DNA of 40,000 nt from Amycolatopsis orientalis DSM 40040 = KCTC 9412 (GTDB lineage: Bacteria; Actinomycetota; Actinomycetes; Mycobacteriales; Pseudonocardiaceae), in assembly GCF_000478275.1 (NCBI RefSeq), contig NZ_ASJB01000062.1, positions 56,344 through 96,343 of the forward strand. The letters are read 5' to 3'. The notes under the pieces are model-generated. The model saw only the letters and a list, made by a program, of their open reading frames with translations, was not told where the DNA came from and ran no database searches. Below are positions 6,819 to 37,472 of the stretch, in pieces. How positions within the stretch are numbered: position 1 is the first letter of the stretch; each line of letters starts with the position of its first letter. The translations under genes were made by a program, and so were the position numbers.

Positions 6819-6943
6819 TGGAGGCTCCCGACGATACTTCGGTCCGTGGGGCGATGGGTGCGCGCGCTGGACTTCAGCGTAGGGAACCCGGATTCCGGCG
6901 GCTAGCGCACTTTCCGGGGGTAACAAGGTGAATTCGCCGGTCC

Positions 6944-6999
6944 CGTGGCTCGTGAGTGGTAATGACGGTTAGAACCGTCATTACCACTCACGAGCCACG
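6944..6999. repeat. perfect palindrome (26-27 bp arms, 2-nt centre)
   Basis: (C)GTGGCTCGTGAGTGGTAATGACGGTT-AG-AACCGTCATTACCACTCACGAGCCAC(G), checked base by base. Confidence 0.95.
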
Positions 7000-7046
7000 A
7001 GGGTGTTCAGAACGTGAGGGGAGCGCGAGGGTCACTCGGGGTGAGG

Positions 7047-7091
7047 GGTGTGTGGAAATAGGGACACTGAACGTCTCTATTTCCACACACC
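7047..7091. repeat. hairpin with 15-bp stem and 15-nt conserved loop
   Basis: GGTGTGTGGAAATAG (7047-7061), loop GGACACTGAACGTCT (7062-7076), CTATTTCCACACACC (7077-7091). Homologous hairpin at 37249-37293. Confidence 0.9.
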
Positions 7092-7116
7092 CTCGCATCG
7101 CCGGTCCCGTGGCTGT

Positions 7117-7169
7117 GTCCTGAAGGACCCCTTTGAGACGGTGAACGTCGCAAAGGGGTCCTTCAGGAC
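7117..7169. repeat. hairpin with 19-bp perfect stem and 15-nt conserved loop
   Basis: GTCCTGAAGGACCCCTTTG (7117-7135), loop AGACGGTGAACGTCG (7136-7150), CAAAGGGGTCCTTCAGGAC (7151-7169). A degenerate homologue lies at 37081-37126. Confidence 0.9.
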
Positions 7170-7300
7170 GCCCTCCGCTTGCCGGGGCCATCGCTCCTGG
7201 GCGATTTGGAACACCTCGCCGAATCCCCCATCGCAGGTCGGCAGTAGGTACGGAAGGGTCTCGGGTCGAGGGGAGCGCGAGTGTCACTCGGGGTGAGCCG

Positions 7301-7362
7301 GTCCAGTTCTCGTGAGTGGTAATGACGGTTCTAACCCTCATTACCACTCACGAGAACTGGAC
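7301..7362. repeat. palindrome (30-bp arms, one mismatch, 2-nt centre), possible terminator of the 7371..8216 gene
   Basis: GTCCAGTTCTCGTGAGTGGTAATGACGGTT-CT-AACCCTCATTACCACTCACGAGAACTGGAC. It ends 8 bp from the stop codon (7371-7373) of the upstream minus-strand gene. Confidence 0.9.
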
Positions 7363-7370
7363 TGAGGGCG

Positions 7371-8216
7371 TCAGGGGCGTACGAGGACGGAGAAGTAGAT
7401 CGGCTTGCTGGCGGGGAACAGTTCCCGGTCCTGTTCGTCGACCATCTTCCAGAAGACCTTGCAGTCCACCGGCGCGGTCGGTGGGGTGCTCACGGTCACC
7501 GTCACCTGCACGTGGCCTTGCGGGGCGGTGTCGTTGACGGGGATCCGTTCCGGGGTGCGGCAGGCGCCGGGCGCGACCGGGAGGTCCGTGCGCCGCAGGT
7601 ACCGCTTCCGCCACTCGACCGTGCCGGTGTTCTTGATCTCCCACACCTTCACGAACTGGCTGCCCGGCTTGACCACGGTTTCGTCGGGGATCGTCACGTC
7701 GCTGACGAACCGGCTGGAGTCGCCGGGATGCGGTGGCCCGGCCACGTCGTCACCGCCCGGCGCCACCAGGATCACGACGACGGCGGCGATCGCGGCGACG
7801 AGGACGAGGGCCAGCGGAACCAGCACGCGTTTGGACCGCCATCGCGACCGGACGGGCGCGGGCGCGGGGTCCGGCTCGCGGTCGCCGGAGAGGACGAGCT
7901 GGACGCCCTGCCATCGGGCGTGCCATTCCTCTTCGTCACCATCGCAGGCGCGGACGAACTCGCGCACGGTCTCCCACGGCTGCAGCCGTCTGCCGGTGAC
8001 GGTGAGGTGCAGTGTCGCGTGGGACACCGCGCCGGACTTCGCGGCCATCTTCCGGAAGGACGGCTCCCCGGCCCGCGTCCGGAGCTTCCGGAGCTCGGCC
8101 ATGAACGCTTCCAGCTCCGGTGCCCGTTCTCCCGTTCGCGGTCCCGGCACGCTCCCCCTCGCGATCGTGTCCAACGTGACAACGTTCTTCGTCACTCTGC
8201 GCGGCCGCGTAAGCAT
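7371..8216 (-). CDS. membrane-anchored HTH (XRE-like) protein with C-terminal NBR1-Ig-like domain
   Basis: N-terminal FMAELRKLRTRAGEPSFRKMAAKSGAVSHATL...WETVREFVRAC, then a single TM (VLVPLALVLVAAIAAVVVILV), then a C-terminus with FVKVWEIKNTGTVEW. Start could alternatively be the ATG at 8102. Confidence 0.7.
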   Translation of the reverse strand: MLTRPRRVTKNVVTLDTIARGSVPGPRTGERAPELEAFMAELRKLRTRAGEPSFRKMAAKSGAVSHATLHLTVTGRRLQPWETVREFVRACDGDEEEWHARWQGVQLVLSGDREPDPAPAPVRSRWRSKRVLVPLALVLVAAIAAVVVILVAPGGDDVAGPPHPGDSSRFVSDVTIPDETVVKPGSQFVKVWEIKNTGTVEWRKRYLRRTDLPVAPGACRTPERIPVNDTAPQGHVQVTVTVSTPPTAPVDCKVFWKMVDEQDRELFPASKPIYFSVLVRP

Positions 8217-35200: not shown

Positions 35201-36958
35201 GCCGAACTCGACGCCCGCGCCGATCGGCTGGCACGCCGGCTCATCGAGCGGGGTGTCGGTCCCGAAGGCCTGGTCGCGGTGATGATGCCCCGGTCGCTGG
35301 ACCTGGTCGTCACGGTGCTGGCGATCACCAAGACCGGAGGAGCCTGGCTGCCGATCGACCCGGTCTACCCGGCCGATCGTGTCACCTACATCCTCGACGA
35401 CGCCCGGCCGGCACTGGTGATCACGAGCGCCGCGCTGGCGGACTCGCCCGCCGGTGAGGTGCTGGCGGCACGGCCGGCGACGGTGGTGCTCGACGATCTC
35501 GCGACCGCGGGCGGCGAGCACACGCCGGTCACCGACGCCGATCGGATCCGGCCGCTGGATCCGCGTCATCCGGCCTACCTCATCTACACCTCGGGCTCGA
35601 CCGGCCGCCCCAAGGCCGTCGTCGTCACCCACCGGAACCTGGCGAACTATCTGTTCCACTGCGGGAAGAAGTACCCGGGGCTGCGGGGACGGTCGCTGCT
35701 GCATTCGTCGATCGCCTTCGACCTGACGGTCACCGCGATGCTCACCCCGCTCACCGTCGGGGGAACGGTCCAGGTCGGTGCGCTGGAAGACCTGATCGGC
35801 ACGGTGGAAAGCGCCCCGGCGCTGTTCCTCAAGGCCACGCCGAGCCATTTGCAGACGCTGGAGACCGGCTCCCGGGAGATCGCCGTTCCCGGTGATCTCC
35901 TGCTCGGCGGCGAACAGTTGTCCGTCGAGACGGTCGCCGACTGGCGCCGGACGTATCCGAACACCGTGGTGGTCAACGAATACGGGCCGACGGAGGCGAC
36001 GGTCGGGTGCGTCGAATACCGGCTCGAACCCGGGCAGGCGGCGCCGTCCGGCGACGTGGTGCCGATCGGCACCCCGATGACGAACATGCGGGCGTTCGTC
36101 CTGGATTCGTGGCTGCGGCCGGTGCCGCCGGGCGCGGTGGGCGAGTTGTACGTGTCCGGTGCGGGCGTGGCACGGGGTTATCTGGGGCGGGCGGGGCTGA
36201 CCGCGACGCGGTTCGTGGCCGATCCGTTCGGTGCCGGTGAACTGATGTACCGGACCGGGGACCTGGTGCGGTGGAACCCGGACGGGGAACTGGTCTTCGC
36301 CGGCCGTGTCGACGACCAGGTGAAGGTGCGGGGATACCGCATCGAACCCGGTGAGATCGAGGCGGCACTGGAGGCGCACGAATCGGTGGGGCAGGCCGTC
36401 GTACTGGCCAGGGACAGTGCTTCCGGCAAACGACTGATCGGCTATGTGACTCCCGCCGGGGACACCGGGGTGGACGTCGCCGCGGTGCGCGCGGCCGTGG
36501 CGGCCCGGCTGCCGGAGTACATGGTGCCCGCGGCGGTGGTGGTGCTCGACGCGCTTCCGTTGACGGCCAACGGGAAAGTGGACCGGGACGCGCTGCCGGA
36601 TCCCGACTTCAACGAACGCGTCTCGGGCCGGGAACCCGTCACGGAGGCCGAACGGCTGCTGTGCGCGCTTTTCGCCGAGGTCCTCGGCCTGGAGCGGGCA
36701 GGCGCGGACGACAGTTTCTTCGAACTGGGCGGGGATTCGATCCTGTCGATGCGACTGGCGGCGCGGGCGCACCGCGAGGGAATGGCCTTCGGCGCACGCG
36801 AGGTGTTCGAGCTGCGGACGCCCGCCGGGATCGCGGCGATCGTCGAGCGGGCACCGGATGTGCCCGCCGCGGCGGACTATGCCGGGTCCGACGTCGCCCT
36901 GCTCGAACTGAACCAGGACGAAATCGACGAATTCGAAGCCGAGTTCGACGCCTCGTGA
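27512..36958 (+). CDS. bpsA: glycopeptide NRPS 1, three modules (A-T / C-A-T-E / C-A-T), BpsA/CepA-like
   Basis: 3148 aa. Three adenylation cores, three carrier-protein GGDS sites, and three HHxxxDG motifs (two C, one E). Hand-read specificity codes are DAFYLGMMCK (Leu), DTSKVAAICK (Tyr/beta-OH-Tyr) and DLTKLGEVGK (Asn). The stop codon TGA 36956-36958 lies inside a repeat element. Confidence 0.95.
29300..33715 (+). other. NRPS module 2: C-A-T-E (approximate bounds)
   Basis: C HHILVDG at 29720-29740. A3 core [11 protein letters not shown] at 31052-31084. Carrier Ser at 32174-32176. E-domain [10 protein letters not shown] starting at 32720. Confidence 0.8.
33770..36958 (+). other. NRPS module 3: C-A-T plus a short acidic C-terminal tail (approximate bounds)
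   Basis: C HHILLDG at 34178-34198. A3 core [11 protein letters not shown] at 35585-35617. Carrier Ser at 36737-36739. Tail ...[23 protein letters not shown]. Confidence 0.8.
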
Positions 36959-37222
36959 GTGGTAATGAGGGTTATTTGAGGGGTAGGGCAAATGTGTCCC
37001 CAATGTGGCATTGGGGACGTTCAAGGTCTCCAATGCCACATTGGGGACACCGGCTCCGAAACACGGGCCCGGATCCCGTTCTGAAGGGAAGGTTCGAGAC
37101 GCTCCACGTCTGAAAGGGGCCTTCAGGGCACCCCAGGCCGCGAAAACCCCACCTGGCCCAGGGTGCACCACGCAGCTGTGTTTGCCTTACCTCTCAATAG
37201 AACCGTCATTACCGCTCACGAG
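36952..37222. mobile_element. MITE-like 271-bp element with terminal inverted repeats of about 33 bp, no coding capacity
   Basis: Left end CTCGTGAGTGGTAATGAGGGTTATTTGAGGGG (from 36952). The reverse complement of the right end (37190-37222) is CTCGTGAGCGGTAATGACGGTTCTATTGAGAGG, about 27 of 33 matches. Interior carries the hairpin 36994-37050 (21-bp perfect stem) and a degenerate CTGAAGG hairpin at 37081-37126. No target-site duplication is evident. Confidence 0.6.
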
Positions 37223-37472
37223 AGCGCGAGTTGTCACTCAGGGTGAGAGGTGTGTGGAAAGAGAGACGTTCACCGTCCCTCTTTCCACACACCCCTCGCA
37301 TCTCCACCGGTCTGGCCGAGGTGACCGGGCTGATCGCGCGGGACTGTGTGGATTTCTGTTCATCTAACGGAACAAAATCCACACAGTCGGCGCCCTTCGG
37401 TGGGTCGTGAGTGGTAAGTGTCGTTAGAACGACACTTACCACTCACGACCCGCCAGACCCACCACTCACGAG
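37222..37472. repeat. continuation of the hairpin-repeat block (locus 2)
   Basis: GAGCGCGAGTTGTCACTCAGGGTGAG at 37222-37247. Hairpin 37249-37293 (GGTGTGTGGAAAGAG / loop AGACGTTCACCGTCC / CTCTTTCCACACACC). CTCGCATC. Hairpin 37342-37388 (GACTGTGTGGATTT...AAATCCACACAGTC). Perfect palindrome 37402-37451 (GGGTCGTGAGTGGTAAGTGTCGTT-AG-AACGACACTTACCACTCACGACCC). Solo end fragment ACCACTCACGAG at 37461-37472. Confidence 0.85.

Follow-up and report, generated by a model that had tools for sequence, protein, structure and literature searches.

Short palindromic hairpins with a shared centre form a multi-copy intergenic family in Amycolatopsis orientalis and other Pseudonocardiaceae

Hairpins that carry the same tip on stems of different sequence raise the question of what keeps the tip alike, and whether it is read in DNA or in RNA. 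We addressed this question for a 40,000-nucleotide stretch of the Amycolatopsis orientalis DSM 40040 genome (G000:C62:56344-96343, hereafter the window; genome of 9.06 Mb and 69% G+C). The four hairpins for which a first-pass annotation had described a common 15-nt loop were verified, with coordinates, loops and stems all matching that account (Table 1). Exact GACGTTCAnnGTC sites numbered four in the window, all of them hairpin tips, and GACGTTCANNGTC at one mismatch or fewer gave six matches against 1.22 expected, a number reached in none of 100 shuffles. The 15-nt loop itself has to be redrawn: it is the partly decayed interior of an odd palindrome, in which GAC pairs with GTC and often the next G/C pairs as well. 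Folding leaves loops of 3-7 nt and a 1x1 junction mismatch. The consensus centre pairs nearly to its middle, an A-type copy folding into a 23-bp stem with a 3-nt loop, and in the window copies one or two changes widen the loop to 5-7 nt. Each of the four window copies has a mismatch immediately outside GAC/GTC; over 101 copies the junction pair is the worst paired of the inner thirteen (82% paired), and it is unpaired in 7 of the 24 representative sequences.

Table 1 Palindromic features of the window (positions count from its first nucleotide; a dot means no strand assigned).
Feature	Position	Strand	Arms	Centre	Fold or remark
Intergenic block of stacked palindromic elements	6927..7370	.			immediately follows the stop codon of the gene at 7371-8195 (-)
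Large palindrome, most abundant family	6950..6993	.		GACGGTTAGAACCGTC	
B-type hairpin	7047..7091	.	GGTGTGTGGAAATAG	GACACTGAACGTC at 7063-7075 (flipped copy)	DNA fold -21.4 kcal/mol, z -9.3
D-type hairpin	7117..7169	.	GTCCTGAAGGACCCCTTTG	GACGGTGAACGTC at 7137-7149	-29.9 kcal/mol, z -10.4
Large palindrome, second copy	7310..7353	.		decayed	
Composite of about 270 bp, inverted ends of about 42 bp (large-palindrome type)	36952..37222	.			encloses the C-type and decayed D-type hairpins
C-type hairpin	36994..37050	.	GTGTCCCCAATGTGGCATTGG (each arm a small hairpin by itself)	GACGTTCAAGGTC at 37016-37028	fold
Decayed D-type copy	37081..37127	.		GACGCTCCACGTC (degenerate fifth loop of the first-pass annotation)	-10.6 kcal/mol, z -3.1
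B-type hairpin	37249..37293	.	GGTGTGTGGAAAGAG	GACGTTCACCGTC at 37265-37277	fold
Large palindrome, third copy	37404..37449	.		core GTTAGAAC kept, frame covaries (GTC..GAC)	

The window blocks are mosaics of several repeat units. A direct repeat of 28-30 nt, GAGGGGAGCGCGAGKGTCACTCRGGGTGAG, is present at 7018-7047, 7270-7297 and 37219-37247, preceding a B-type hairpin or a large palindrome, and a 14-nt repeat, GCCGGTCCCGTGGC, at 6938-6951 and 7100-7113. A further hairpin at 37342-37388, GACTGTGTGGATTT-CTGTTCATCTAACGGAACA-AAATCCACACAGTC, has A/B-like arms and a different, longer tip; copies similar to it are present in the NRPS spacer of two other genomes (G135 and G159).

Genome-wide, the family amounts to about 100 hairpins. 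The consensus of the centre, GACGTT-S-AACGTC, an odd palindrome of 13 bases, was found at 34 sites compared with one for a reversed control pattern, and exact motif matches numbered 96, some 63 of which cap a perfect stem of at least 6 bp. Palindromic flanks were detected at 145 of the 4944 GAC-N7-GTC sites, and because about 100 of these 145 carry [GA][TC]T[CG]AAC inside, the conservation reaches beyond the GAC/GTC ends. A lack of such enrichment at hairpin apices over the whole genome, which the first-pass annotation had named as a ground for rejecting its finding, was thus not seen.

The stems, which had been taken to be unrelated, fall instead into about six (at least six) discrete multi-copy subfamilies with shared arm positions. 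These are group A (arm CGAGTGTGGAGGATTTGG, centre GACGTTSAACGTC, about 30 copies), group A' (arm CGACGATGAAGGAATTGG, asymmetric centre GACACTCAACGTC, approximately 25-30 copies), group B (arm GTGAGGGGTGTGTGGATTTAGG, centre GACGTTCAACGTC, about 20 copies), group C (arm GTGTCCCCAATGTGGCATTGGR, centre GACCTTGAACGTC or GACACTGAGCGTC, about 30 copies), group D (arm CGTCCTGAAGGACCCCTTTGA, centre GACGGTGAACGTC, about 15 copies) and group H (arm GTGTCATGAGGGGTCCCCATAG, centre GACGAAWTTCGTC, about 20 copies), the last with the same GAC/GTC frame and a different interior. The elements have arms of 15-26 bp, followed by a short variable junction, often mismatched, and then by the conserved odd-palindrome centre. 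When the arms were anchored on the centre, some positions were fixed across the family: position -11 is G in all 101 copies, -12 is T in 82%, -4 is T in 95% and -2 is G in 96%. Other arm pairs vary, with three or four types of pair seen, four at pair 10 and four at pair 16. Among 24 representatives from four genomes, 95.8% of the arm cells were paired compared with 64% in shuffles, and 17 of 21 pairs had changes on both sides, which supports that the arms remain complementary through double changes. One such compensatory change, AATAG/CTATT versus AAGAG/CTCTT between homologous B-type stems, had already been noticed in the window and is real. The picture of a sequence-specific, conserved apex on freely varying stems thus stands as regards the tip, which is found again on other kinds of arm, both in this genome and in other genera, and has to be given up as regards the stems, which are subfamilies.

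The two orientations of the tip were then compared within subfamilies. One of four B-type copies with the left flank TCACTCRGGGTGAG is inverted at its tip, the three others reading GAC-RTTCAC-YGTC; the centre at window position 7063 is the reverse complement of the other three, with one difference when flipped and five when read directly, and where it closes with a G.T mismatch, the copy at 37265 has A.C. The loop flip is therefore genuine, and from these four copies on one flank and from the orientation counts across subfamilies, inversion of the tip through the arms can occur. Asymmetric centres flip rarely (13 to 1 in A', 7 to 0 in C), and perfect centres have G or C as their single central base with about equal frequency (7 to 6 in A, 5 to 2 in B). 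Strand switching in quasi-palindromes is known to invert the sequence between the arms; small inversions of a hairpin loop between inverted repeats are found in chloroplast non-coding DNA, and template switching at quasi-palindromes in bacteria. As in those cases, the unpaired tip and the mismatched closing pair (G.T to A.C) are inverted here with the arms in place; unlike them, the inversion lies inside a multi-copy repeat family and is rare for asymmetric tips (1 in 15 and 0 in 7).

The family stands beside a larger population of palindromes. Perfect palindromes with stems of at least 12 bp number about 1750 in the genome and fall into about ten centre classes. The biggest class (305-367 copies) has the core GTTAGAAC, one base longer than and related to GTTSAAC; GACGGTTAGAACCGTC, the centre of the window copy at 6950-6993, is likewise a relative of the hairpin centre with one base more. 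This most abundant palindrome family has the form TCGTGAGTGGTAATGA-CGGTTAGAACCG-TCATTACCACTCACGA; GTTAGAAC is kept in it and the adjoining pairs covary (CGG/CCG, TCG/CGA, GCG/CGC). Its flanks showed a weak, copy-specific palindromic extension of 2-4 bp, and they gave no excess of direct repeats of the kind that a target-site duplication would leave: such repeats were present beside 24 of 305 large palindromes (k=2) and 4 of 305 (k=4), to be read against a yardstick of about 8-10% at k=2 that is a rough guess and not a computed value.

Hairpins of the family also occur inside longer elements. Two more copies of the 270-bp composite of the window, at 90% identity, lie at G000:C4:21488-21759 and C99:213347-213617. 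The window copy provides the TGA stop codon of a gene for a 3148-aa NRPS. The A and A' hairpins often lie as modules inside a composite about 330 bp long, whose inverted ends of about 48 bp read GTGAAGGCCTCCTTCCCTACC...GGCAAAGTCG. It is present at G000:C64:73650-74250 and at about 12 similar loci, the sequence between the A and A' hairpins being conserved, and about 50 short hairpins, with the centre TACCYTSARGGTA, look like its two ends joined directly.

We investigated the distribution of the family in the genus and beyond. The exact consensus is present at 10-92 sites in some 20 of the 100 species sampled from the genus and at 0-7 sites in the rest, with 0-2 for the reversed control. One genome (G140) shares the A, A', B and D arms, every one with a perfect centre, and a genome of another genus (G032) has 20 consensus sites on a different arm, GTCATGAAGGTGCCGTTTGG, again with a perfect centre; GGCGTTSAACGCC is clearly raised in the latter (35 sites). 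A covariance model built from 24 hairpins, a check proposed together with the first description of the loops, matched at least 75 loci in the own genome and detected the family in 15 of the 60 Pseudonocardiaceae genera sampled; two low-count members of the genus (G020 and G070) gave at least about 25 model loci each. The centres in the other genera read GGCGTTGAACGCC and TGCGTTGAACGCA, which are frame-covarying variants, or GACGTTGAGCGTC, so the universal core is CGTT-S-AACG, kept across genera with a frame that covaries between GAC/GTC, GGC/GCC and TGC/GCA. In one species of the genus (G113, loci L071-L089), 95-nt units contain the 13-nt odd palindromes GAACGTGGCGTTC and GACGTYWGAYGTC/GACGTTSAACGTC in the alternation P1-P2-P1-P2-P1 with 2-3-nt linkers, an arrangement that allows several alternative foldings. 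The A-type hairpin had no match in plasmid and phage collections. The searchable literature yielded no description of such a palindrome family in Amycolatopsis or other actinomycetes, and the family and its centre appear undescribed.

In general outline the hairpins resemble the REP, BIME and REPIN elements of Proteobacteria. Both consist of short, GC-rich extragenic palindromes that number tens to hundreds, cluster behind genes, form mosaics, differ between related species, and divide into subfamilies with compensatory stem changes. REP and REPIN sequences are mobilised by RAYT, a Y1 HUH transposase, whereas the Amycolatopsis genome that carries the family is without RAYT: no match to Y1/RAYT (Y1_Tnp, PF01797) was found in it (99.99% complete), the profile is absent from 100 of 101 genomes of the genus, and the sole genome with a match has no motif sites. 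Unlike REPs, the hairpins have no GTAG-type 5' tag, their outer ends being CGAG, CGAC/CGTC, GTGAG or GTGTC; conservation lies in their centre instead of their 5' end, and their stems are much longer (15-26 bp). A second comparison is with the CGTC-tagged REPs, which occur mainly as head-to-head dimers and lack an associated transposase (Di Nocera et al. 2013, PMC3733652) and are also called Ssn-related motifs, cut by the SsnA GIY-YIG single-strand nucleases (Chenal et al. 2025, PMC11893778). The pattern of these motifs, SRM, comprises a CGTC head, an 8-9-bp stem starting with A/T pairs, a 4-5-nt loop and a 3-nt tail, and ssnA is a gene of about 94 aa for a single-domain GIY-YIG nuclease in repeat-rich genomes (PMC11893778). 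As in the head-to-head dimers, which form a large palindrome with GACG-spacer-CGTC in its middle, GACG-TTSAA-CGTC stands at the Amycolatopsis centre, there is no association with a transposase, and the C-type arms fold alone. Most arms here, unlike those of SRM, do not fold alone: A, A' and B arms gave an MFE of 0 and only the C arm formed a hairpin (-16.8; 9-bp stem, 5-nt loop), so that a reading of every arm as a REP hairpin, and hence of every element as a REP dimer, is true of the C type only. The bases after GTC are C/G and not A/T, the tag becomes CGCC or CGCA in other genera while CGTT-S-AACG stays, and CGTC-tagged REPs are not reported from Actinobacteria. With MITEs, finally, the hairpins share their non-autonomous and palindromic nature and the presence of long composites (270-330 bp, 42-48-bp inverted ends) beside short collapsed forms; they differ in that no parent insertion sequence with their ends was found in the genome and in that conservation peaks at the centre and not at the outer tips.

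Searches for a partner or a parent element in the genome gave the same result as that for RAYT. No TnpB gene was found, nor any small single-domain GIY-YIG protein of the Ssn kind, the only two PF01541 matches of the genome lying inside frames of 667 and 757 aa. The IS91 Y2 profile had no match in the genome, and control genomes gave none either. No gene is flanked on both sides by family hairpins and no neighbour gene family recurs beside them, only NRPS paralogues clustering there. An autonomous element or parent insertion sequence with the same arms was likewise not found in this genome: arm pairs lie at most 60 bp apart, one pair at 1.7 kb encloses an ordinary oxidase gene, and no arm pair encloses a transposase gene. 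Among other resemblances, a DosR-type box, TTSGGGAC..GTCCCSAA, fits subfamily A with a spacing of 7 and not 4, and its flanking GG/CC is not conserved in other subfamilies; a likeness to the tRNA T-loop is in the wrong register, and HspR, KstR and LexA boxes match half-sites only.

Taken together, the hairpins are on balance probably a REP- or MITE-like superfamily of small non-autonomous palindromic repeats in Amycolatopsis and other Pseudonocardiaceae, with the centre as a cis site for their spread. The centre would act in cis to let a source copy multiply, and a putative protein would read it either as a palindrome in double-stranded DNA or as an extruded or single-stranded hairpin. An inserted copy would no longer need its centre, which may then decay, as it has in the four window copies, and strand switching between the arms would occasionally invert it while the arms stay complementary. 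Whatever effect the hairpins may have on transcripts, two-way termination or 3'-end protection for example, would be a by-product of the hairpin and not of the centre sequence. Because the centre is kept across genera without either known REP partner (RAYT or Ssn), it points to a new DNA-hairpin-reading activity in actinomycetes. We suggest more tentatively, as a possibility that we hold to be less probable than its contrary, that CGTT-S-AACG is the site of an undiscovered enzyme, neither Y1/RAYT nor Ssn, acting on extruded or single-stranded hairpins, and that it would define a third, mechanistically distinct REP-type system by its centre rather than by its ends.

The assignment of the centre to source copies is based on how conservation is distributed. 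Divergence from the subfamily consensus, at the six inner positions of the centre and in the stem respectively, was 0.075 and 0.057 in A, 0.175 and 0.096 in B, 0.324 and 0.106 in C, 0.189 and 0.052 in H, 0.10 and 0.15 in A', and 0.08 and 0.15 in D, so that the inner centre diverges as much as the stem, or more, in four of the six. Across subfamilies, species and genera, no part is as constant as the centre. Since the inner tip is no better conserved than the stem within a subfamily, resident copies do not give the impression of ligand sites under individual selection; since it is constant between subfamilies, we infer that the centre would be needed by the source and not by the resident copies. 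Apex and stem divergence had a weak positive correlation (rho 0.22, p 0.012), too weak for a rule that younger copies have better centres. The same distribution bears on an account by neutral descent, which we judge unlikely. All hairpins would then stem from one ancestral palindrome, whose self-complementary centre was homogenised by arm-to-arm correction with no factor reading it. This account would explain why the inner centre is no better kept than the stems within subfamilies and why searches for a partner (Y1/RAYT, TnpB, GIY-YIG, neighbour genes) were negative, and the conserved positions common to the arms do point to common descent. It has more difficulty with arms that are near-random at many pairs, yet surround the same CGTT-S-AACG across arm lineages and 15 genera; moreover, the frame beside the core covaries, and change therefore does occur there. 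Conservation between subfamilies could still be partly due to common descent with slower change at a self-paired core.

The position of the copies relative to genes was determined with a crude GC3-based gene caller (6883 genes, 82% coding). None of 101 copies lies inside a gene; 51 are in convergent, 38 in tandem and 11 in divergent gaps, these gap types holding 21, 49 and 30% of the intergenic bases. The hairpins accumulate immediately after stop codons, and their frequency is highest between convergent genes. The block at 6927-7370 starts about 10 bp past a stop codon, and its 430-bp gap corresponds to an orthologous gap of about 5 bp in one related genome (G096) and to an unrelated palindrome of about 110 bp in two others (G088 and G089). 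A second orthologous gene 3' end carries a different hairpin in each species, D-type here and, in four sisters, a plain GC hairpin, a GTGAAGG-type hairpin, a large-palindrome type and A-like copies, while the NRPS spacer has a different palindrome set in each of ten species. These loci show that elements have been gained and lost between species; the species compared are about 85% identical, and the comparisons therefore reveal turnover and a preference for gene 3' ends, and no single insertion event.

This distribution has to be set against a reading of the centres as host protein sites, that is, as a 13-bp operator-like palindrome for a dimeric DNA-binding or nucleoid-associated protein that organises domains or controls downstream genes. 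Such a site, 13 bp and palindromic around a free central base, has the typical form of a dimer site; enrichment of the motif is strong, and the flanking T-4 and G-2 are also kept. Divergent gaps, where promoters lie, nevertheless hold only 11% of the copies as against 30% of the intergenic bases, the hairpins are absent at orthologous loci of sister species, and the centre decays in resident copies. A conserved regulon does not fit the counts, which run from 0 to 92 between species of a single genus, and we consider such a role quite improbable.

We then looked for signs that the hairpins are read at the RNA level. Isolated stem mismatches on the transcribed strand showed no wobble bias, with 37 G.T against 34 A.C in ++ gaps and 34 against 32 in -- gaps; 25 asymmetric centres have the same orientation as the nearest upstream gene and 30 the opposite one, and the covariance model scored equally on both strands. 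Rfam 15 covariance models at gathering score gave no matches in the 40-kb window, no T-tract follows the family hairpins, and no terminator-like site coincides with one of them. A symmetric constraint at the DNA level is favoured by this lack of mismatch strand bias, of centre orientation, of a T-tract and of an Rfam match, and the structured RNA that the first-pass annotation had envisaged found no support in the wobble and orientation counts, the strand scores or Rfam. A two-way effect of the hairpins on transcripts is possible. That they serve primarily at the transcript level, as two-way terminators, 3'-end stabilisers or structured RNA or RNA-ligand hairpins with a loop read in RNA, would suit their place directly after stop codons, mainly between convergent genes, their high stability (z -8 to -10) and the presence of some palindrome at the same 3' end in each species, but is in our estimate highly doubtful given those same observations on T-tracts, strand, orientation and Rfam, and little of the centre would be exposed in RNA because its consensus pairs down to a 3-nt loop.

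The elements bear on a genus that makes vancomycin-type antibiotics and whose genomes are loaded with palindromic repeats, both behind genes and inside biosynthetic clusters. They mark hot spots of intergenic turnover, and are likely to cause assembly breaks and instability in engineered clusters. Further palindrome families of the genome have outer arms of the type (C/G/A)TGA(A/G)GG...CCTT, for example GCTGAAGGGCGCTTTCCCCGCATCGCATGCGGGG (about 100 copies) and CATGAAAGGTCCTTTCCTTGCAAAATTTGCAAGG (about 80 copies). Many palindrome arms also contain GGAGG/CCTCC runs, which are Shine-Dalgarno-like or anti-Shine-Dalgarno-like.
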